This document shows positions 18,791 through 53,570 of a stretch of 64,000 nt of DNA, one piece after another. The translations under genes and the position numbers were made by a program. How positions within the stretch are numbered: position 1 is the first letter of the stretch; each line of letters begins with the position of its first letter. The notes below the pieces were generated by a model. It ran no database searches. It saw only the letters and a list, made by a program, of their open reading frames with translations, and was not told where the DNA came from. This DNA is from Candidatus Uhrbacteria bacterium (GTDB lineage: Bacteria; Patescibacteriota; Patescibacteriia; UBA9934; GWF2-40-263): contig JAHFIQ010000002.1 in the NCBI GenBank assembly GCA_023246355.1, forward strand, positions 118,229-182,228, written 5' to 3'.

Positions 18791-20056
18791 ATGAAATCCT
18801 TCAAAACGCTTCTCTTACTCATCGTCATTGTCCTTATCGGAGGCTTGGGGTTTCTGTACTGGGCCAGCTTTGTGGATCAGACAACGGAGCCGATCGCTGA
18901 GGTGTCTGAGGAGCAAGAAGCGCAGGAGACGCAGGAGCCAGAGAATGTCGGCCCAGGAACGTATCTCATTTTTCAATCAGTCCGTACGACCGACGCAGGA
19001 GAACAAGACTGGGCGAATGATGATACACAGACCTATACGTTTTACCGTCTCGCACTAGGCGAAGCGACCTATCGAGCAAATCCTTCCTCGGAAGATCTTG
19101 TTGCGTTTGCGACGGTTGAGCATGGACCGGAGTTTGGGGGAGGACTGACGACCACGATCTTTGGAGAAAATCTTTTGATGCATCGATACCAGACCAGTCG
19201 TGTGTACGACGCCGTGAATGGACGTCCAGAGGAGGGGACAGAGCAAGATGGACTGATGTCACTCACAGGGGAAATTGTGAAAACACGACCAGAGCAGTGG
19301 GGTTCGATTCGTTCAAAGAATGGACGGTACGAGGTGACGTGGAATTCTTTGTACGATGAGATTGAACAGAACATCCTTGTCACAGACACACTTAGCGGTG
19401 AGATCGTGGCACAGGTTGATCCCGCATCCATTATGGAATCGTCTCGTTGGACGGCTGAACCGTTTGCGATGAATAACCTTGGAACGTATCTGTATCTGCA
19501 CGAGGTATGTGGCTGTGAGGCATCGTTGTCTGGCTATTGGGAAGTGAATCTAAAGACTGGCGAGATCCGGGACTTACAGAAACTGTTTGATCTCCCTTCG
19601 TGGAGTCAGACAAATTTGGATCCAGACACTGGGCGACTGCTTGTCATCGATGAGGCTCGTGAAGCAAGTAGTGAGGGGCCATTTGATGAACTGGTGCCTC
19701 CCTCAACGGTCCGGTTGATCGATCTTGATTCTAGTGAGACAACCAACCTGTTTACCGATGAAGCACAGGCCTATGGTCGTCCGTTGCTTGATGCTTCAGG
19801 CCAAGATTCTTATCTGTTGAGACCCTGGAAAGAAGGAAACGAGATCTGGCTTTTTGGACTTGAGGATGACGAGGCACAAGAGGCTGAGAAACTCACGGAT
19901 GGTTGGGTGATGGACTGGGTCGGTGACTGGTTGGTCGTCGACGATAATCAAATCCTGAGTCTGTTTAATTTGGAAACACGAGGATCGATGACGCTGGTCG
20001 TCCCCGATGGAGCTGAACGGTTCGAATATGTCGGGTCGGTTGTGATAGGCGAATAG
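18791..20056 (+). CDS. membrane-anchored acidic extracellular protein, probably a beta-propeller
   Basis: N-terminal TM, beta-strand-like repeats and a CGC motif; no family recognised. Confidence 0.7.
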   Translation: MKSFKTLLLLIVIVLIGGLGFLYWASFVDQTTEPIAEVSEEQEAQETQEPENVGPGTYLIFQSVRTTDAGEQDWANDDTQTYTFYRLALGEATYRANPSSEDLVAFATVEHGPEFGGGLTTTIFGENLLMHRYQTSRVYDAVNGRPEEGTEQDGLMSLTGEIVKTRPEQWGSIRSKNGRYEVTWNSLYDEIEQNILVTDTLSGEIVAQVDPASIMESSRWTAEPFAMNNLGTYLYLHEVCGCEASLSGYWEVNLKTGEIRDLQKLFDLPSWSQTNLDPDTGRLLVIDEAREASSEGPFDELVPPSTVRLIDLDSSETTNLFTDEAQAYGRPLLDASGQDSYLLRPWKEGNEIWLFGLEDDEAQEAEKLTDGWVMDWVGDWLVVDDNQILSLFNLETRGSMTLVVPDGAERFEYVGSVVIGE

Positions 20057-20065
20057 ATTTCAGCT

Positions 20066-20566
20066 ATGGTTTCATCAGAAAATAATTACGCCTTCATTGA
20101 TAGTCAGAATGTGAATCTTGCAATTCGGGCGCAGGGGTGGAAATTAGATTTCAAACGTTTCCGAGTGTATCTTCGAGACAAATATCAAGTCGAGAAAGCC
20201 TATTTGTTTATTGGGTACATACCTGGCAATCAAGGTCTTTATAATGATCTCCAGAGTGCTGGGTTTAATTGTATCTTTAAACCAACTCTGCAATATAAGG
20301 ATGGAACAACGAAAGGGAACTGCGATGCGGAACTTGTCCTGTGGTCAATGATAGAGTTGGGAAATTACAAAAAGGCTGTTATCGTGACAGGTGACGGTGA
20401 TTTTTACTGCCTTGTCGATTATTTGCTTAACCAAAAGAAACTTGAGGCCGTATTAATCCCAAACCAGTATCACTTTTCGGGGCTTCTTAAATTTAAGCAT
20501 TTTCGTCCTTTTCTCCGCTACATGAATGGGCTCCGAGATAAGCTAAAAAAAGAAAGGGCCCCATAA
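20066..20566 (+). CDS. NYN/LabA (DUF88) PIN-like ribonuclease
   Basis: AFIDSQN, KGNCDAELV and TGDGDF catalytic Asp motifs; visibly more AT-rich than its flanks. Confidence 0.9.
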   Translation: MVSSENNYAFIDSQNVNLAIRAQGWKLDFKRFRVYLRDKYQVEKAYLFIGYIPGNQGLYNDLQSAGFNCIFKPTLQYKDGTTKGNCDAELVLWSMIELGNYKKAVIVTGDGDFYCLVDYLLNQKKLEAVLIPNQYHFSGLLKFKHFRPFLRYMNGLRDKLKKERAP

Positions 20567-20603
20567 GGACGAGACCTTATAGGGCTTACTTTCCGTTGGT
20601 GAT
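20545..20603 (-). ncRNA. putative small RNA 1, convergent on and overlapping the NYN gene 3' end
   Basis: Minus-strand promoter TTGACA (20633-38)-17 nt-TACTCT (20610-15) with extended TG. Predicted RNA ATCACCAACGGAAAG..GCCCTATAAGG-TCTCGT-CCTTATGGGGC.CTTTC plus U7. No ORF follows the promoter. Confidence 0.6.
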
Positions 20604-20640
20604 AAATAAAGAGTATCATCGCTGTGAAAAGTTGTCAAAC

Positions 20641-20690
20641 AAAAAGGGCTCCTTAGGTAGTTAGCCGTTCGGATCCCTCTTCGTATTGAT
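20641..20690 (-). ncRNA. putative small RNA 2, tandem paralogue of sRNA 1
   Basis: Minus-strand TTGACA (20718-23) and extended -10 TG-T-TATAGT. Predicted RNA ATCAATACGAAGAGGGATCC...GGAGCCCT plus U5. It starts ATCA 6 nt after the -10 box, exactly as sRNA 1 does. Confidence 0.5.
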
Positions 20691-20742
20691 GCAGCTACTA
20701 TAACATAGTTTGATCGTTGTCAAACAGAACGAGACCTTATCT

Positions 20743-21102
20743 ATGTCAAATAAACATGGCCCTTGTCTGGAAAAGAACTGCTCGTGGTGCTGCAAGCCAG
20801 TGAAAGTGCCAGCCAATTTTCCAGACGAAAAGATTCCAAAGGATAAGGAAGGAAAGAAAATTTGGAAAGACCGTGACGAGCTCATTGTACCGGCCAGTGC
20901 ATTTGATCGAGTAAGACTCAAGACGTTCGACTGTGATTTGCTCGATTCAGAAACGGGGAAGTGTACCGATTACGAAAATCGTCCAGAGATTTGTCGGAAT
21001 ACGAGTTGTCTGGATGACACGTCGTCCAAGAGTGTTGACGAACAGCATAAAGATACGATTGACGAAGAATTTCTTGTTCTTCGTGGTCAACGAAAAAACT
21101 AA
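20743..21102 (+). CDS. YkgJ-family cysteine-cluster (Zn/Fe-S chelating) protein
   Basis: C-x4-CSWCC ... C...GKCTDYENRPEICR; ATG at 20743. Confidence 0.85.
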   Translation: MSNKHGPCLEKNCSWCCKPVKVPANFPDEKIPKDKEGKKIWKDRDELIVPASAFDRVRLKTFDCDLLDSETGKCTDYENRPEICRNTSCLDDTSSKSVDEQHKDTIDEEFLVLRGQRKN

Positions 21103-27614: not shown

Positions 27615-27845
27615 ATGGAACGAATTGAAGTGAATCCAAACATTATGGCTGGCAAGCCAGTCATTCGCGGAACGCGGATTTCTGTTTCGCTTGTTTTGAA
27701 TTTATTGGCGAATGGCTATACCCCATCACGTGTGATCGAGGCCTATCCTCAATTGACTTTTGAGGATGTACAAGCCGCCATGCAATTTGCTGCGTCTCTT
27801 GCCAACATGGAAGAGCGCTCCTATGGCCTGATCCAGCCCGTGTGA
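27615..27845 (+). CDS. DUF433 antitoxin
   Basis: P.IM.GKPVIRGTRI.V...YP.L..EDV.AA. Confidence 0.93.
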   Translation: MERIEVNPNIMAGKPVIRGTRISVSLVLNLLANGYTPSRVIEAYPQLTFEDVQAAMQFAASLANMEERSYGLIQPV

Positions 27846-28213
27846 AATTTTTGTTGGACGAAAATTTATCGAGGGAGACGGCAGAGTACATGAAAGGTTT
27901 GGGTTACGAAGCAGCCACTGTTTTTGATTTTGGCTTGTCTCAGTCGGAAGATCGCGAGATTGTCCATTCTGCTGCCGAGCACGGTTTTATTTTGATGACA
28001 TTCGATTTGGACTTCGTGTTCCTCTATAGAATATTTGGAGAAAAGAAATTTGGTGTCGTCATTTTTCGATTGCATGATCAGACGGTTGAGTCAGTGAATC
28101 AAGCCGTGGACCGATTATTGGAGAGTCGTTGTTTGGATGAAAAAGTGAATCAGCGAGGGGTGGTGATCGTGGATGAAGTGTCCATCCGTGTGCGTCGAGA
28201 GTCTGAAACCTAA
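27842..28213 (+). CDS. DUF5615 PIN-like toxin
   Basis: KFLLDENL..D.EI...T.D.DF; overlaps the DUF433 stop codon. Confidence 0.9.
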   Translation: MKFLLDENLSRETAEYMKGLGYEAATVFDFGLSQSEDREIVHSAAEHGFILMTFDLDFVFLYRIFGEKKFGVVIFRLHDQTVESVNQAVDRLLESRCLDEKVNQRGVVIVDEVSIRVRRESET

Positions 28214-28224
28214 ACACACATTGT

Positions 28225-29163
28225 ATGGAGACAAAAGATCGTGAGAAGATCTTAGAGAAAAAAGTGATGATCGGCGGTGAGTCTTTTGATCTTTTTCTTG
28301 ATCGGCAAAGGGGCGCCTCCCTGTATGTGAATGCTGATCGAAGTAGATACCTCCGTGTTGGCGATCCTGATGTTGTAGAAAAGGAGCTAGATTTTCACAA
28401 GCAACTTCTGGGAGGTGGGTTCCCTGTTTCAAGAATCCTTGACGAAGGACGTCTTGGTGAGCGATCGTATTGGTCTGAAGAATCGTTGGGCAATGACCAT
28501 CTTCACGACATATTTAAACAGGAAACAGAGAGTGCAGGGCTGATTTCTGAATCGTCTTTTAGAGCTTTTTTGAAGGTCGTTCAGCAATTCAATGCGGCAC
28601 AGGCAAGTACAGCGAATACGTTACCCATCGACTTTGAAAGACTCTCAGCTGCTGTTGGGTTTGATGGGATGATTCATGAACTTCCAGACCTCTCTGACGA
28701 TTTGCGCGCGAGTTGGAAAATGGTACAGGAGCGGCTGAAGGACTATCCAAGCTGTTTGACGCACGGGGATTTTAACCCGCACAACCTTTTTTCAAAAGGA
28801 GTGATTGACTTCGGCGATCACTTTGTTGGACCAATCGGATATGACGCAGTGACAGCAGTCACGACGCCGTTTTGGTTTCCTAAAGGAGAAGGTTTTGAAT
28901 TTCGGCGGAAGTATACGTTCACAGAGGATCAAGTCCGTCAGTTTTTCGATGCGTGTGGAACGTATCAAGTAGGCGAAAGAGAGATAGACATTCGTGATCG
29001 ATTTGACGAGCTTTTCTTGTTAAAGGCGGCTTGGTGGTCTGTACGTAATCAGCGCAATCCAAAATTACAGGAGTGGCGCTATGACAGATTTAGGAAAGTT
29101 GTTGATGAATTCATCCGTGGCGAGTCACTTCTCGAACATTGGCAATCGCATCTAAACGATTAA
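28225..29163 (+). CDS. aminoglycoside phosphotransferase / choline kinase family protein
   Basis: HGDFNPHN and IDFG motifs. Confidence 0.85.
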   Translation: METKDREKILEKKVMIGGESFDLFLDRQRGASLYVNADRSRYLRVGDPDVVEKELDFHKQLLGGGFPVSRILDEGRLGERSYWSEESLGNDHLHDIFKQETESAGLISESSFRAFLKVVQQFNAAQASTANTLPIDFERLSAAVGFDGMIHELPDLSDDLRASWKMVQERLKDYPSCLTHGDFNPHNLFSKGVIDFGDHFVGPIGYDAVTAVTTPFWFPKGEGFEFRRKYTFTEDQVRQFFDACGTYQVGEREIDIRDRFDELFLLKAAWWSVRNQRNPKLQEWRYDRFRKVVDEFIRGESLLEHWQSHLND

Positions 29164-29793: not shown

Positions 29794-30399
29794 ATGAAGC
29801 TCTGCTCAGCCCCCAAATGTGGGGGGATATTCTACGCACGTGGGTTTTGTCGCAAGCACTACCAGCTATTTCGCCTGGCTGGCTTTCCAGAAGGTTGGAT
29901 GCCCAAGCGTCGCATTTGGTTTTGTTTGGTGCAGTGGTGCGATGAGGAAGTGACCACACGGGGATATTGCGCCGCTCACTACCAACAGTGGCGCCGGCGG
30001 GGGTATCCAAAAAACTGGAAGCCGAAGAAGCCTCGTGAGCCGATCTTGCTGTGCCTGGTCAGCGGCTGCGGTGAGCCGAAAAAAACCAAAGGTTTCTGTG
30101 ATCGGCACTACAAGCAATGGAGGAGGGGTCATCTGGAAGGCTTCACTCCACCAGCCGTTGTTCCTCACTGCAAGGTTCCCGAGTGCGAGGGCACGGTTAT
30201 CGGACAAGGGTTTTGTCGACGTCATTACAATCAGTGGCGTCGCAATGTGCTTGAAGGTTTCCCTCGCCCTGGCTTCCCCTTGTGCAAAGTTCCTTCCTGC
30301 GATGAGCCTGTTTACGGGTATGGATGGTGTCAGCGCCATTATCGTTTCTGGCGACGCCGTGGCTATCCCAAAGATCTGGATCCGAACACGTTAAGCTAA
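29794..30399 (+). CDS. protein made of five tandem C-x4-C-x7-G-x-C-x2-H-Y zinc-finger-like repeats
   Basis: Five units of about 39-44 aa, four of them ending HYxxWRR (unit 1 ends HYQLFRL); followed by a terminator hairpin. Confidence 0.85.
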   Translation: MKLCSAPKCGGIFYARGFCRKHYQLFRLAGFPEGWMPKRRIWFCLVQWCDEEVTTRGYCAAHYQQWRRRGYPKNWKPKKPREPILLCLVSGCGEPKKTKGFCDRHYKQWRRGHLEGFTPPAVVPHCKVPECEGTVIGQGFCRRHYNQWRRNVLEGFPRPGFPLCKVPSCDEPVYGYGWCQRHYRFWRRRGYPKDLDPNTLS

Positions 30400-46955: not shown

Positions 46956-48015
46956 TCTGTTATTCCACGGCTTGCTTGCTCAATCCCGTGGAGAAGAAGA
47001 GTTCAAGCCGACCAAGGCCGAATTGGCTGTGGCGGTTACCACCAGGATGCACGAGGATCGCCAAGCCAATCTGGGAGGGGAAGACGATCTGGCCGTGTAC
47101 CTGCGGCCGATGAAAGCCTATCCGATGGTTTCGACTCATGCCCAGTGGGCAGATCTCTTTGCGCGGTACAAGGCAGGTGATGTGATCGCTCACGATGAGC
47201 TGGTGTATCGCAACATCCGTCTGGTTGTCTCCGTGGCGATCAAGTACAGCCGTCGTGGACTTCCACTTCTTGACTGTGTTCAAGAGGGAGTGATTGGTCT
47301 TCTGACTGCAATAAAGCGGTTTGAAATAGAGCGGGGATATCAGTTCAGCACCTACGCCACAGGCTGGATTCGCCAGGCAATCACGCGGGCCATCGAGGAC
47401 ACAGGAGATCGGTATTCGTACCGCATTCCGGTTCACATGGCAGAGCAGATTTCTGTTGTCCGGGGTTGCATGGCGCATTTCGTCAAAACCTATGGCGAGT
47501 GGCCCACACCCCTGGACGTGTACAAGCTGGTGAAGTCTCGCAAGACCCAAGTGGTAGCTGCCATGACACTCGTGGACACCAAGAACTGCATGAAGTACGT
47601 CCAATTCGGGGAATCAGAGCGATTGGATCGCGAGGTTTCTGGAAAGGGCGGCGAGGAAGAAGGTCGCTTTGGTGACAAGCTCCCTGATCGAAGAGTCAAA
47701 ACAACGACCGTGGTCGACGCGAGCAAAATGTTGCCGCGCTACCATGCGGCTCTGGAGCGGGTGGAGAAGGCTGTCAAAGCCCTGCCTGCCCGCGACGCCA
47801 TGGTTCTGTCCATGCGTCTGGGGCTTGGCTCGTTTGATTCCATGACGCTTGAGGAAGTTGCAGAGCGCTACGAGCTCACACGGGAGCGCATTCGGCAGAT
47901 CGAAGAGAAGGCCTACGAGAAGCTGGCAGAAGCTGGTTTCAAGATTTCCCACGAGCAAATCCAACAACTGCAAGACGTGTTGGACGAGCTCGAACGCATT
48001 GTGAGGTCGGTCTAA
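46936..48015 (+). CDS. RpoD/RpoS-like sigma70 factor without region 1.1
   Basis: NIRLVVSVA.KY..RGL...D..QEG.IGL, FSTYAT.WIRQAI and TLEEV....LTRERIRQIE. Confidence 0.93.
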   Translation: MLATNNNLLFHGLLAQSRGEEEFKPTKAELAVAVTTRMHEDRQANLGGEDDLAVYLRPMKAYPMVSTHAQWADLFARYKAGDVIAHDELVYRNIRLVVSVAIKYSRRGLPLLDCVQEGVIGLLTAIKRFEIERGYQFSTYATGWIRQAITRAIEDTGDRYSYRIPVHMAEQISVVRGCMAHFVKTYGEWPTPLDVYKLVKSRKTQVVAAMTLVDTKNCMKYVQFGESERLDREVSGKGGEEEGRFGDKLPDRRVKTTTVVDASKMLPRYHAALERVEKAVKALPARDAMVLSMRLGLGSFDSMTLEEVAERYELTRERIRQIEEKAYEKLAEAGFKISHEQIQQLQDVLDELERIVRSV

Positions 48016-49232
48016 TGGACGAGGTCAACTGTCAAATTGCGGAAGCATCGATTCCGGTCGCTCTGTGCTACCAGGAACAGGGAACAGCTGCCTGCGCGGG
48101 TTGCATGGCCGTCAGCCGCCGATGTCCGGAGTGCAAACGCGCCGGAAATATGGGTGAGGCAAAGGAAGGTGTGTGCAAGGATTGTCTTGCCAAGTTGAGG
48201 AGCAAGGCGGGCGATGCCAGGCCAAGCCTTCCAGGCGGAAACGTCGCGGATGCCCTGGAGGAAACGCTCGATGGCCTTGAGGACATCGCCTACGGTGACA
48301 CTTCTGCCATTTCTGGTGGAGATGAATCTCACCCAGACGCAGTGCGCGATCTGGACACAGATGCACTCAAGAAAAGCCGCCGCGCACAAGACGCTGGGTT
48401 TCTCCTGGCGCATCTTGGGCCCTTCATCGTGGAGAGACCAGACGGATCTCGTTTGGTGACAGCAGCTCACGCTGTGCTCATGGAACAGGCGAGGCTCATG
48501 CCTGATGAGACGAGTCGCGCCATTGAGTTGCTCGTGAGCCGTGGCCTTGTGGAGCGTCGTGGGGAGAGTGATCTCATTATTCTCACCCGCGAGATTCCAC
48601 AGCTGGCGTCTCAATCGTCCGCGGCGGGATTCACCGGCGGAGCTCCCAAGCTCACTCCACTCAGGCTTACGGGTCGTGTGGACGATGCCAAGGGACGTCA
48701 AATCCCAACCATCGAGGAGATCTATGCCGCATTGGAGGGTCGTCATCGGGTGGTTGGGGAAGAGAGACTGGTAACCGGCGCCGTGCCCATCCTCCAGCTT
48801 GAACTGCATGTGGGTGCTCCTGTGGCGATCCGCATGCTGGAGCGTCTGCAAGAAGAGACCTTGGTCAAGCCCAAGGATGGTTGGCGAACACTGGTTCTGC
48901 TGGGCGAAGGCGAAGTGCACGACTCGCGTGCCGCCCTCAAAGAAGAGACCATTCTTCGCATGGAGCGCTCAGCAGCAAAAGCGCGTCTCATCATTCGTAA
49001 AGGGGTGCTCACGAAGTTCGCCTTCGGTCGAGCGCTTCAAGCCTTGGATGAGAGCATCAGCGAGCTCGAGGCCATTGGCGTGCAAGTCGCCTCGCAGGTC
49101 ACGGCCTTGCGGGCACACCGCGAGGAAGTTCGCCAGGCAGAGCTCGGCTACGATGAAGCCCGTGCACAGAGCGAGAACGCGGTCGAAATGACCAATCCAC
49201 TGGCAGCTTCACAGAGGCCGCCAGACGCCTAG
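48015..49232 (+). CDS. hypothetical protein: Cys-rich Zn-binding N-terminus, two winged-helix-like domains, coiled coil
   Basis: Eight Cys including three CxxC pairs; ILQLELHVG...A.RMLE.L.E..LV resembles FtsK-gamma; TAATG coupling to the sigma gene. Confidence 0.65.
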   Translation: MDEVNCQIAEASIPVALCYQEQGTAACAGCMAVSRRCPECKRAGNMGEAKEGVCKDCLAKLRSKAGDARPSLPGGNVADALEETLDGLEDIAYGDTSAISGGDESHPDAVRDLDTDALKKSRRAQDAGFLLAHLGPFIVERPDGSRLVTAAHAVLMEQARLMPDETSRAIELLVSRGLVERRGESDLIILTREIPQLASQSSAAGFTGGAPKLTPLRLTGRVDDAKGRQIPTIEEIYAALEGRHRVVGEERLVTGAVPILQLELHVGAPVAIRMLERLQEETLVKPKDGWRTLVLLGEGEVHDSRAALKEETILRMERSAAKARLIIRKGVLTKFAFGRALQALDESISELEAIGVQVASQVTALRAHREEVRQAELGYDEARAQSENAVEMTNPLAASQRPPDA

Positions 49233-49257
49233 ACCCCACACACGTGGGGTTTTATGA

Positions 49258-49310
49258 TTGACGATTTCCATCCGAAGGCGTACGGTTTCCATCCGTTCCT
49301 TACAAGGAGT
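49258..49310 (+). promoter_or_regulatory. promoter, 17-nt leader motif and RBS of the HrpB-like gene
   Basis: TTGACG-17-TACGGT, CCATCCGTTCCTTACAA, GGAG. Confidence 0.6.
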
Positions 49311-49314
49311 TCTC

Positions 49315-51576
49315 ATGCAAGAGTCTCTTCCTGTTGACGCTGTGGCCCCGCAGGTCGTTGAAGCCATTCTCAGGAGGCGACGCAATGTCGTCCTCACCGC
49401 ACCGACTGGTTCGGGAAAGACCACCCGCATTCCACAGCATCTACATCTCTCAAGTCCTCGCTTGCGCATCCTCGTGGTTCAACCTCGTCGGGTCGCTTGT
49501 CGTGCGGTGGCTCGTCGGGTGGCCAAAGAGCTGGGAGTTCGGGCTGGGCAGCAGGTCGGCTACATCACGCGTGGCGATGTTCAGACAAGCGAGTCAACCG
49601 TTGTCACGTTCGTGACAGACGGCATTCTGCTCCAGATGTTCCAGTCGGATCCTCGGTTGAGGTCCTTTGACGTCATTGTCTTTGACGAGTTCCACGAGCG
49701 TCGTCTGATGACCGATTTGGCTCTGGCCCTCGCACGCCGAGCGCAGCTCTCAGGCAGCCACATTCGGATCATCGCCATGTCCGCGACCATGCCGGATCGC
49801 GAGCGTCTGGTGGAATACCTGGATGCTGAACCGTTCACGGTTGATGTCCGCAGTTTTCCGGTCGACATCCGTCACGTCTGTTCCAGGCCCCATGAGCATC
49901 GGCTGGCCGATCGCCTGATCGAGAAGATCACCTGGACGCTTCAGAATATTCCCGAAGGCGACATCCTCGTCTTCCTTCCGGGAAAAGCCGAGATCGACCA
50001 GGTGTTGCGTGGCCTTGCGCAAAAGGAGCTGCCCGACGTTCATGTCCTTCCACTGCACGGACAACTGCCCTCCGGGGGACAAGACCAGATCTTTGCTCGC
50101 GCAGAAGGTCGCAAGGTGATTCTTTCAACCAACATTGCCGAGACCTCACTGACGGTTCCTGGTGTCCGAGTCGTGATCGACTCAGGTCTGTCTCGTGAGG
50201 CGAGTTACCTTCCAGAACTTGGAGTCAATCGTTTGGTGCTTGGGGTGATCGCTCAGGATTCGGCAACGCAACGTGCGGGCCGAGCTGGACGTGAAGCACC
50301 TGGACTGTGTCTGCGTCTGTGGTCTGAGGGGGAGCATCGTCGGTGCGCTGAAACCGCGGCCCCTGAAATTCATCGGACGGAATTGTCTGATCTGGTTCTG
50401 CATCTGCGGGCGATCGGCATTGAACGCTTGGGGGAGTTTCCGTTTTTCGATCCACCAGACCCAGAGCGTCTGGCAGCGGCAGATGATCTGCTGAGCACGC
50501 TAGGTGCCTACGATCGCGATCACAGGCTCAACCACATCGGCCTCATGATGTCGCGGTTGAATCTTCCGGCACGTTTTGCCAGGATGATGGTACAGGCCAT
50601 GGCCGAAGGGGCTGAGCAAGAGGTCGCCTCGATCGTGGCCATGCTCATGACGCCCAACGTGTTCAAGTTCCCACCGGGTTTGCGAGAGGTCGCGCTGGAA
50701 GTGCACAGCCATTTGATGGCCACGGCCAACTCCGACTTTGATCAGCTGCTCAGGCTCTTTCAGGAGTTTGAACGGCAAGCACATCCCCAAAGGTACTGTC
50801 GCAAGAACTTTCTCACCTTCGGCGGGATGCGCGAAGCAGAGCGGTTGCAGGAGCGGATTCTGAAAACCGTGAAGGAGCTTCAGGCAACTCGACCCAAGGA
50901 AGCCATTTCGCGAGAGAGCATGTCGCGGTGTCTTTTGAGCGGTCTGCTTGATCGCGTGGGCCGTCGTCGGGAAGACGGACTCTTTGACATGGCGATGGGA
51001 GGCCTGGGGAAACTGCCCAACGGCTCACTGCTGAAAGGTGATTGGGTCTGCGCGGGTGAATTGCACAGCGCTCGGGAGAGGTTTCATCAGGGAACGCCTG
51101 CCGTGATCTCGCTTGCGTTTTCCTTTGACCCAGCCCTGCTCGAGCAAATCGGCGGTCACCTGATCCGCCAGCGGACGCATTTGGTCGAGGCCTTTCCCGC
51201 TTTGGGGAACGTACGGGCCAACCGCCTGACCTCTTACCTGTACTTGACGATAGGTGATTGGCAAGAGGTCCTGCTCAGCCTTCAGGAGGCTCGAGCCATT
51301 GCCAAGGAACAGGAGGAGGAGGCGAAGGATCACGATTGGCACAAAGCCGATGTTCGTCGGGTTGCGCGTCGCAAGGGATCTGTTGTCCTGTTTGCGGATC
51401 GGCATGTTCCCATCGCTGAGGAAGTCCCAGAAGGCCTGTGGTGGGTTGAGCGCTCTGGTACGAAGGAGGCGCATCCGAGATACAAGATTCTCGAGCTCCC
51501 GATTCCACAAGAAGGGGTAACACTTCCTTCTTTGGAAGCAACCAACGCACTGGTTGATCAACTCCTTGGTCTCTGA
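49315..51576 (+). CDS. HrpA/HrpB-like DEAH-box RNA helicase
   Basis: APTGSGKTT, QPRR, DEFHER, MSAT, STNIAETSLT, QRAGRAGR and HA2 domain; ATG at 49315. Confidence 0.92.
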   Translation: MQESLPVDAVAPQVVEAILRRRRNVVLTAPTGSGKTTRIPQHLHLSSPRLRILVVQPRRVACRAVARRVAKELGVRAGQQVGYITRGDVQTSESTVVTFVTDGILLQMFQSDPRLRSFDVIVFDEFHERRLMTDLALALARRAQLSGSHIRIIAMSATMPDRERLVEYLDAEPFTVDVRSFPVDIRHVCSRPHEHRLADRLIEKITWTLQNIPEGDILVFLPGKAEIDQVLRGLAQKELPDVHVLPLHGQLPSGGQDQIFARAEGRKVILSTNIAETSLTVPGVRVVIDSGLSREASYLPELGVNRLVLGVIAQDSATQRAGRAGREAPGLCLRLWSEGEHRRCAETAAPEIHRTELSDLVLHLRAIGIERLGEFPFFDPPDPERLAAADDLLSTLGAYDRDHRLNHIGLMMSRLNLPARFARMMVQAMAEGAEQEVASIVAMLMTPNVFKFPPGLREVALEVHSHLMATANSDFDQLLRLFQEFERQAHPQRYCRKNFLTFGGMREAERLQERILKTVKELQATRPKEAISRESMSRCLLSGLLDRVGRRREDGLFDMAMGGLGKLPNGSLLKGDWVCAGELHSARERFHQGTPAVISLAFSFDPALLEQIGGHLIRQRTHLVEAFPALGNVRANRLTSYLYLTIGDWQEVLLSLQEARAIAKEQEEEAKDHDWHKADVRRVARRKGSVVLFADRHVPIAEEVPEGLWWVERSGTKEAHPRYKILELPIPQEGVTLPSLEATNALVDQLLGL

Positions 51577-51677
51577 CATCTGACCTTGCCTCCTGGCAGG
51601 GTCTTTTCAATTGACGAGCATTTGTATTTATGGCATAGTTTTCGGCCGCTGCTTCCACCTTCTTCATAGGAGTCGCC

Positions 51678-53570
51678 ATGGATCATCAAGATATCCGTCG
51701 CGCGCTCCAGGGGAGTGTGGCGGCGGTTTTGGAAGACAAGCTTCTTCCACGTGTGCTTCGTCCCTACCAAGTTGAGACGTTCTACCGATTTGGCACTTGG
51801 CTTGCTGACACAGGTGCCACACATCGCTGCTACATCTCCCATGCTACGGGACTAGGCAAGACCGTCTGGTTCTCGTCACTTGCCAGACATTGTTCTGACA
51901 TGCGAGTGCTGGTGATTGTGCCAACCAAAATGCTCGTCGAGCAGACGATCCGAACCCTGACGCAGTTCTGCGGTGGCATGATTGGACATCAGTCAAGCCT
52001 AGACAAGATTCGCGATCGCCGCGGCCAAGTTGTGGCCATGCGTGGGCATGAGTTTTCCAATGTGGTGGTGACGACCGACGAAAGCTTTGTGACACGTGCT
52101 GCCGAGTTCCGCCGTGAGTTCGATCCCGACCTCATCATCTGGGACGAATGCCATTGGGCATACCACTCGTCGGCCTCTGCTGCGCTGGCCCTGTTTGATC
52201 GACCGGTGATTGTCGGGCTTTCAGCCACCACAGATTTCCTTACCAACGTGAGTCGCGGTGGTTCCGTTCCTGTGGTGATGGACAACGGCCAAGTGCTGTA
52301 TTGTCCGCCCAGTCGACTCGCCGCCACGCATTTCCACACCCTGGTGGATGAACGCACGGTTCGTTGGGGCATTGAAAGCGGTTGGCTCGCCCCGCTTGCA
52401 TGGGCACAGCTCCAGCTGAACCTGAAGCTCAGCGAAGTACCTGTCACGTCAGGTCCTGGAGGTGAGGACTACAACGAGGCCAAGCTCCAGCAAGCCATGG
52501 AGACGGCTTGGCCCACACTCATCGATGCGGTGTGCAAACTCTACGGCGATGAGTCCTACGGGCTCATCGATCGTCAGGTGTTTGCGGTCTGCCCCAGCGT
52601 TCGGGCTGGACGCGAGCTTGCCTATGCCCTTTCAAGCATGGGAGTTCCGGCGGCTTGCATTGATGGAGGGACGCCAGATCGCGATCGCAACATCATCTTG
52701 AGTGCCTTTGACAAGAGGGAATTTCGGTTCCTCTCCTCGGTCATGGTTCTGCGTGAAGGATGGGATGCGGATGCGGAAGTGTGCCTCATGCTGCGGCCGA
52801 CACGTTCACGCATCTACTACCTTCAGAGCATGGGACGTGTGCTGCGTCCATCACCAGATGGTGGGTACAAGGTTTCGCTCGTCGTTGATGTGAAGACACG
52901 TGATCAGCGGTTCACGCCACTCTCAACGCCTACGTTGTTCGCTCCTCCTGGGTCGGAAGTAGAGGAACGCAAGATTCTCATCGGACCTCGCCACTCCTCT
53001 GGCGCTCATGGGAAACCTTCCTCGCTTGTCTCGCCGTATGCGGTGGAAGGAATAGCGCCCAAGCTCATCCACGTTCCTGCGGTTGAAGTCGAGTACTGGG
53101 CGAGTGCGAGTGGCACCTTCGAAACTGATGGAAAAACATGGGGCACACCAGCGGCCTTGTCCCTGCTGCTGCCGGTCTCAGCACCAACGATTGATCGACG
53201 GGCGAAAGAGGCGTGCGAGAGTGGGATGATTTCTTCTCGAACGGCTCGCAACGCCAGTGGAAGGCATTGCGCCTTTTACGCCCTGGATGAGATTCAAGCT
53301 TTGTGCGCGGATCTGTTAAAACCTGACCGCATTCAATCAGCTGGATGGTTTGAGGAAGACGGTGAAGTGTGGGTCGCAAGGTACGCGGCTCCATCTCTGC
53401 TCTCCTTACTTCCCACAATTGTGGATGTGATCGTCGGCAATGCTCAGGTTCGTAGGCGTGAAGCCAAGCCGGTTCGTGGACGCGTGGCCACGTACTACTG
53501 CCTCTCGGATTTGAGAAAAGTTCGAGAACAACTGCACGTTTCTCGCGAACTCACGGGCAGCTCTTCGTAA
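51678..53570 (+). CDS. SF2 helicase with two C-terminal HTH-like repeats
   Basis: LRPYQ, ATGLGKT, DECH, SAT, EGWD and QSMGRVLR; TTGACG promoter and AGGAG RBS. Confidence 0.85.
   Translation: MDHQDIRRALQGSVAAVLEDKLLPRVLRPYQVETFYRFGTWLADTGATHRCYISHATGLGKTVWFSSLARHCSDMRVLVIVPTKMLVEQTIRTLTQFCGGMIGHQSSLDKIRDRRGQVVAMRGHEFSNVVVTTDESFVTRAAEFRREFDPDLIIWDECHWAYHSSASAALALFDRPVIVGLSATTDFLTNVSRGGSVPVVMDNGQVLYCPPSRLAATHFHTLVDERTVRWGIESGWLAPLAWAQLQLNLKLSEVPVTSGPGGEDYNEAKLQQAMETAWPTLIDAVCKLYGDESYGLIDRQVFAVCPSVRAGRELAYALSSMGVPAACIDGGTPDRDRNIILSAFDKREFRFLSSVMVLREGWDADAEVCLMLRPTRSRIYYLQSMGRVLRPSPDGGYKVSLVVDVKTRDQRFTPLSTPTLFAPPGSEVEERKILIGPRHSSGAHGKPSSLVSPYAVEGIAPKLIHVPAVEVEYWASASGTFETDGKTWGTPAALSLLLPVSAPTIDRRAKEACESGMISSRTARNASGRHCAFYALDEIQALCADLLKPDRIQSAGWFEEDGEVWVARYAAPSLLSLLPTIVDVIVGNAQVRRREAKPVRGRVATYYCLSDLRKVREQLHVSRELTGSSS

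Follow-up and report, generated by a model that had tools for sequence, protein, structure and literature searches.

A candidate mobile toxin-antitoxin cassette that pairs an NYN-family nuclease gene with a convergent hairpin RNA in Patescibacteria

Why should a gene for a putative PIN-fold nuclease in a Candidatus Uhrbacteria genome be faced, across the 176 bp between the end of its ORF and the next ATG (20743), by two small hairpin RNA units on the opposite strand? We studied this locus in a window of 64,000 nucleotides (the whole stretch of DNA analysed), for which an earlier reading of the letters had proposed an RNase restrained or guided by a mini-array of small RNAs, possibly an antiviral or addiction module. 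All of the elements named in that original prediction sit at the positions given for them (Table 1). A 2017 survey lists the NYN.COG1432 cluster as of unknown function, and an RNA partner is absent from its text as far as that was available (PMC5499597). The reading we favour, with a probability of about 0.5, is that gene and RNA belong to a mobile toxin-antitoxin cassette in which the hairpin RNA would bind its cognate NYN RNase; that they make up an RNA-antitoxin cassette of one mechanism or another is considerably more probable.

Table 1. Features of the NYN locus, with positions in the window
Feature	Position	Strand	Basis
Possible weak -10 box (4/6 match), 6 nt 5' of the NYN ATG; leaderless mRNA	20054..20059	+	sequence
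NYN/LabA (PF01936) PIN-fold nuclease gene, putative toxin, 166 aa	20066..20566	+	Pfam E 3e-12
RNA unit 1, subtype A, predicted cognate RNA of the resident NYN	20545..20603	-	profile E 2e-17, profile seeded without the window
Unit 1 promoter: -35 TTGACA 20638-20633, 17-nt spacer, TG-extended -10 TACTCT 20615-20610	20610..20638	-	conserved in homologues
RNA unit 2, subtype E, orphan, GAA/UAA internal loop	20641..20690	-	match to another NYN subclade's primary RNA
Unit 2 promoter: -35 TTGACA 20723-20718, 15-nt spacer, TG-extended -10 TATAGT 20702-20697	20697..20723	-	sequence
14/15-nt repeat of unit 1 hairpin arm and loop, just 5' of the next gene's ATG	20726..20740	+	sequence
CxxCxxCC (PF03692) gene, host neighbour outside the cassette	20743..21102	+	no homologue beside other examined NYN loci

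The NYN ORF has a GC content of 0.40 against 0.52 in the window, and 77 of 81 homologous NYN genes are likewise AT-rich relative to their own flanks. Its product matches the PF01936 profile at 47.6 bits (cut-off 24.2); NCBIfam returned no match and PADLOC only a weak NYN match. The closest solved structure is the NYN.COG1432/LabA-like protein VPA0982 (PDB 2QIP, E 1e-10), which shares its family and fold, and the AF2 prediction (pLDDT 93.7) gives a VIA Z of 18.9 against 2QIP and 15.0 against the MARF1 NYN domain. Four catalytic-type aspartates (D12, D87, D110, D112) are intact, and 128-130 of the 130 clade proteins retain these acidic residues. From the predicted fold and these residues we infer that the protein is an RNase. 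In 27 of 79 homologues (L001-L080), compared with 19 of 237 control positions, a -10 box lies 5-8 nt 5' of the start codon; boxes so near the start suggest that NYN mRNAs are leaderless. Uhrbacteria and further CPR groups supply the nearest named homologues. The host genes around the window NYN include a 421-aa ORF of no assigned role, the CxxCxxCC protein and a D-Ala-D-Ala ligase, together with flanking synthetases that, from inspection of their sequences, we take to be asnS-like and aspS-like. Elsewhere in the window there are a DUF433 and DUF5615 (PIN-like) pair resembling a type II VapBC module (27615-28213), with an APH-family phosphotransferase gene (28225-29163) after it; a 201-aa ORF for a zinc-finger repeat protein with repeated Cys/His motifs (C-x4-C...C-x2-H-Y) and a weak DUF5763 match (29794-30399); and a region of GC 0.56-0.59 (48000-53000) against 0.52 overall.

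Unit 1 comprises an unpaired AUCAC leader, a two-part hairpin with a GG-UCUCGU-CC apical loop, and a U-tract; its predicted start is A20603, its U-tract reaches 20545, and it overlaps the final 22 nt of the NYN ORF. Unit 2 has its predicted start at A20690 and its U-tract reaches 20641, and in both units 6 nt separate the -10 from the start. Folding z-scores for units 1 and 2 are -4.5 and -3.8 on the minus strand and -3.2 and -1.9 on the plus strand. A generic promoter scan at its own thresholds reported neither unit's promoter and detected the unit 1 terminator. Three related metatranscriptome contig sets gave no placement here, which speaks neither for nor against transcription of the units. 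In the 63 homologous promoters whose -35 is good, the spacer is 16 nt in 38, 17 nt in 14 and 15 nt in 2, which places the unit 2 spacer one base below the mode; the modal value of 16 rather than 17 nt may be a feature of CPR sigma-70. An antisense ORF of 86 aa (20921-20661, TTG start) enters unit 2 but begins upstream of both promoters. The repeat at 20726..20740 is likely to be the relic of a third unit, chance being the alternative; matches of at least 12 nt occurred in 9 of 893 control pairs. A 12-nt match 5' of the CxxCxxCC gene was considered as a regulatory target and set aside because it does not recur at other loci. Neither unit matched Rfam 15 at E<=10, and at six other loci no Rfam covariance model reached its gathering score over the RNA. 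We also abandoned a hammerhead reading of the plus strand, based on GGACGAAAC, which we presume to be a hammerhead motif, since the positions concerned are variable and Rfam gives no match there.

Homologous loci were searched with a nucleotide profile that spans promoter and unit and was seeded from 39 of them, the window excluded. Promoter and a 50-60 nt hairpin were found directly 3' of NYN, on the opposite strand, at 79 of 80 genome loci, and a covariance model (R1) matched 3' of NYN at 78 of 80 metagenome loci, some of whose contigs duplicate the genome set; both metagenome misses end at most 11 nt past the protein match. A conserved convergent promoter and hairpin 3' of homologues was the check that the original prediction had set for itself, and conservation on this scale indicates that the window element is not there by chance. 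Its idea of a mini-array calls for correction, and a co-processed one is unsupported: most loci carry a single RNA (a second unit or hairpin is on site at 6 of the 80 genome loci), and unit 2 belongs with a different NYN subclade. In the 10-pair upper stem of 88 units, 117 cells had changed on both sides compared with 35.7 after shuffling, giving a covariation score of 0.407 versus 0.209 after shuffling (0/500), with slid controls no higher than 0.193, in a shuffle test that relatedness among the units can inflate. In the unpaired leader, positions 1-5 and 7 show 91-100% conservation, a figure slightly overstated as the start was chosen by its motif, and an apical loop of the form GG-UNYYGU-CC occurs in about 56 of 78; at 18 fourfold-degenerate NYN sites the mean top-base frequency is 0.36, i.e. 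synonymous sites are saturated. The apical loop is able to change, as the RNA of one locus (L073) lacks it and two others (L030, L035) have different loops, which counts against the favoured reading. A leader-loop pseudoknot showed no covariation (61 observed, 60.9 shuffled). RNA lengths among subtypes differ by non-multiples of three, which argues against an encoded peptide. The RNA family is real, widespread and tied to a mobile NYN clade, and it is apparently undescribed: no account of an NYN-hairpin RNA pairing was found in the literature covered, namely main texts open without subscription.

The convergent layout, with its overlapping 3' ends, is also what a type I-like system would present, in which the RNA would pair with the 3' end of the NYN mRNA and RNase III would cleave the duplex, as with RatA on txpA. 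We regard this as unlikely but deserving serious weight. In the sections of the source available, txpA/RatA, bsrG/SR4 and fst/RNAII each have a convergent small RNA over the toxin 3' end, and our layout equals that of the first two (PMC4147584); the correspondence is at gene level, with transcript ends predicted from sequence. The duplex with the cis-overlap is computed at -113 kcal/mol, 4 of 5 host genomes examined encode RNase III, and the plus-strand U-tract is weak (at most 5 U of 8 in 66 of 78), so the mRNA could traverse the whole RNA gene. The mobility and decay described below fit antisense control equally well, and symE/SymR and ralR/RalA provide precedents for nuclease-type toxins controlled by RNA. 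However, cis-complementarity requires neither a conserved unpaired leader and loop nor recurrent asymmetric internal loops, and the overlap with the NYN coding region varies from 0 to 53 nt across loci. Unpaired RNA positions are conserved here and the overlap is shorter than in type I systems, whose toxins, with SymE and RalR as exceptions, are mostly small hydrophobic peptides of less than about 60 aa rather than 166-aa soluble PIN enzymes. We favour protein binding because cis-pairing, being automatic, gives no reason for unpaired bases and asymmetric loops to stay constant. The near-consensus convergent promoter and the terminator-like hairpin and U-tract might alternatively damp NYN by transcriptional interference, with the RNA product incidental. 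This we consider very improbable, since the transcript would end within 0-53 nt of the coding region and the conservation of leader, loop and internal loops, the clade-specific subtypes and the intact orphan RNAs would all be left unexplained.

On a quick IQ-TREE maximum-likelihood tree of 151 proteins, the RNA subtypes, which differ in their internal loops, follow the NYN subclades, a match that physical linkage alone would be expected to produce. Subtype G proteins have in common a basic 10-residue insertion. In several subtypes, and in 7 of 91 units of the first set, UAA stands opposite GAN, presumably the internal-loop motif of that name, under which our literature search found nothing. 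Unit 2 is identical to unit 1 at 32 of 54 positions, so it is not a copy, and to the primary RNA at another locus (L166) at 45 of 50. A model built from four subtype E RNAs with the window sequence left out (R2) reports unit 2 at 66.8 bits (E 1e-13) and gives no hit on unit 1. The resident NYN shares 36-38% identity with subtype E proteins. In 401 genomes a subtype E RNA stands beside 7 of 7 subtype E genes (four being the training loci); in one genome (G302) the E RNA is present and the E gene absent, these genomes being incomplete, and no subtype E gene occurs within the 64-kb window. Unit 2 is therefore likely to be an antitoxin left behind by an older cassette that lost its nuclease gene at this site. 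Its pairing with the resident mRNA is at the level of shuffled sequences (-30.7 versus -29.3 +/- 3.0), and we accordingly dropped the possibility that it acts on that mRNA. Mixed tandem RNAs were also seen at L023, L026, L077, L144, L157 and L204, and single genomes can hold four cassettes with differing RNAs (G109) or two of the same subtype (G001), the latter a point against the favoured reading. At three loci (L054:2729-2828, L065:3487-3592 and L138) one promoter seems common to two hairpin units, a possible polycistronic RNA, and a group I intron (RF00028, 73 bits) lies just 5' of the subtype E cassette at L166:287-522.

The surroundings of the cassettes point to mobility. Genes downstream fall into 66 clusters among 72 and those upstream into 61 among 67; no conserved protein antitoxin gene was found beside NYN in these sets, unlike in VapBC, whose toxin is also a PIN-superfamily RNase. 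Direct repeats of 27-103 bp surround 14 of 79 cassettes compared with 8 of 6162 cross pairs, one of the 14 (at L015) being merely a duplicated RNA promoter; none were found around the window cassette. Insertion with long target duplication has been reported for restriction-modification genes (PMC2853133, in the part available). Two complete cassettes stand in tandem at L015 and L064, and at L224 an intact A cassette precedes a subtype E gene and its RNA, the gene being frameshifted, possibly through an assembly error. NYN genes are split or have internal stops at L012, L080, L108, L167 and L281, with internal stops and an intact RNA at L012 and L080; at L280 the gene is cut to 15 codons and joined to an intact RNA gene, and lone RNAs occur at L092, L100, L102, L117, L279 and L290. 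Loss of the enzyme first, with the RNA kept, is the order expected for a toxin and its antitoxin. At the level of sequence, linkage, covariation, mobility and gene loss with the RNA retained thus lend good support to the idea of an RNase restrained, in addiction-like fashion, by a small RNA. A defence-island setting was considered and rejected, since few neighbours resemble defence genes: in PADLOC at 1e-10, 13 of 135 match, several through generic helicase, cold-shock or methyltransferase domains. tRNA-like sequence adjoins cassettes or RNAs at L134, L038, L046, L053 and L290. At L054:3441-4033 an orphan RNA is divergent from an antitoxin-like gene, which we take to be of the Panacea/DUF4065 family, followed by a small RelE-like ORF.

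Across 151 sampled Patescibacteria genomes we counted 50 clade genes in 42 genomes (E at most 1.3e-29). Family RNA accompanies 45 of them, by model match or by eye; one of the other five has an unrelated promoter and hairpins and four have none. In a distant LabA-like CPR clade the RNA was found at 0 of 17 genes. Five NYN genes with intact acidic residues (L079, L150, L155, L159 and L160) have no family RNA nearby, nor was one found in their genomes at E<0.05, and such intact RNA-less genes count against any toxin model. The last four make up two subclades in which the loop that precedes the KGN motif carries an insertion of ~3-16 residues and the C-termini are longer; they may be attenuated or tamed forms. 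Judged by eye, the distant NYNs at L169, L170, L171, L173 and L191 face a promoter-like sequence and a hairpin of unrelated sequence, and the convergent promoter-hairpin architecture may span the whole NYN family. A further distant NYN, at L168, faces such a promoter-like sequence with unrelated hairpins. Carriers beyond CPR, by their record titles, include Emticicia, Omnitrophota, Armatimonadota and Deltaproteobacteria. Phage records gave no match to NYN, a plasmid collection only distant ones (27-32%), and IMG/VR two contigs, both with the RNA; no viral decoy copy of the RNA with a subtype A pattern was found. In one ESM Atlas cluster Uroviricota is the commonest label among 6 labelled members, which we note as a lead only. 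The NYN/LabA clade search returned at least 7991 clusters at 90% identity, a count that takes in more distant relatives.

Near-obligate linkage and conserved unpaired bases would also suit an RNA that joins a non-toxic NYN in a ribonucleoprotein, as its cofactor, activator or fixed guide, to process host or phage RNA. Eukaryotic NYN-like RNases act on stem-loops, and the leader, AUCAC(C), reproduces 5-6 nt found in the 16S 3' tail. We nevertheless judge this reading improbable. An RNA-guided array needs a variable spacer and a target; here the RNA has no variable unpaired segment and no target was found, which also tells against the guided nuclease of the original prediction, as complementarity to rRNA and to the RNA's own mRNA is no better than chance. 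Against three 16S and three 23S rRNAs, both identity and complementarity were at the shuffled level except for one 23S (mean 9.0 versus 7.9), and leader-mRNA pairing was -8.7 for the own mRNA and -8.6 for others. Mimicry or targeting of rRNA, and pairing of the leader with the mRNA, at the GDGD codons or at other sites, were accordingly discarded, for chance-level matches and for lack of cognate preference, respectively. In addition, the RNAs outlast their genes, and the distribution is patchy and mobile.

Among known systems the cassette resembles type III (ToxIN, CptIN, TenpIN) in joining an endoribonuclease-type toxin, here of predicted activity, with a non-coding RNA, in lacking a protein antitoxin and in having subfamily-specific RNAs. 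The type III toxin belongs to the ToxN family, whereas PIN/NYN is the sole Pfam family matched here, and its RNA consists of tandem pseudoknot repeats upstream of the toxin with a terminator between, according to the part of the source available (PMC12283969). The RNA described here is downstream, convergent at 79 of the 80 loci, driven by its own promoter and mostly a single hairpin. The type III analogy of the original prediction may therefore extend to mechanism at most and not to family membership, as the ToxN-family toxin and the upstream tandem repeats are absent. In the type III-like, HEPN-based AbiF/RCd22 pair a hairpin-motif ncRNA neutralises the RNase by direct binding, in cis and in trans (PMC12373285, available portion). 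By analogy the NYN cassette is likely to work as AbiF/RCd22 does, with another fold and layout; the two differ in fold, RNA position and prophage setting, and Rfam abiF is unmatched here. Cas13 is reported to descend from an RNA-antitoxin group (PMC12283969, same part).

Under the binding model the NYN/PIN-fold protein is a predicted toxic RNase, and the convergent ~55-nt hairpin RNA, made from its own promoter, would block the enzyme of its own subfamily by binding it. The near-consensus promoter would hold the RNA in excess, and the NYN would recognise leader, internal loop and apical loop. On loss of the cassette, or when transcription stops, for example during phage infection, the RNA would decay and the RNase be released. 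A new cassette would land beside an old one, whose toxin gene would then decay, and mixed tandem RNAs would accumulate. More tentatively, and with considerable doubt, we suggest a lock-and-key class of RNA antitoxin, the first with a PIN/NYN RNase and a monomeric convergent hairpin, with at least seven subtypes and a presence in more than a quarter of Patescibacteria genomes, where orphan RNAs would serve as a working immunity library against incoming cassettes or toxins acting in trans.

If the favoured reading is true, it would provide a function for a very large uncharacterised NYN/LabA clade, and RNA-antitoxin biology would gain a new RNA family of unusual layout. A 166-aa RNase with ~55-nt orthogonal RNAs would offer compact switches, and the natural subtype pairs make binding versus antisense action directly testable. 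The cassettes would also be among the commonest selfish or defence modules of CPR bacteria, whose defences are poorly known.
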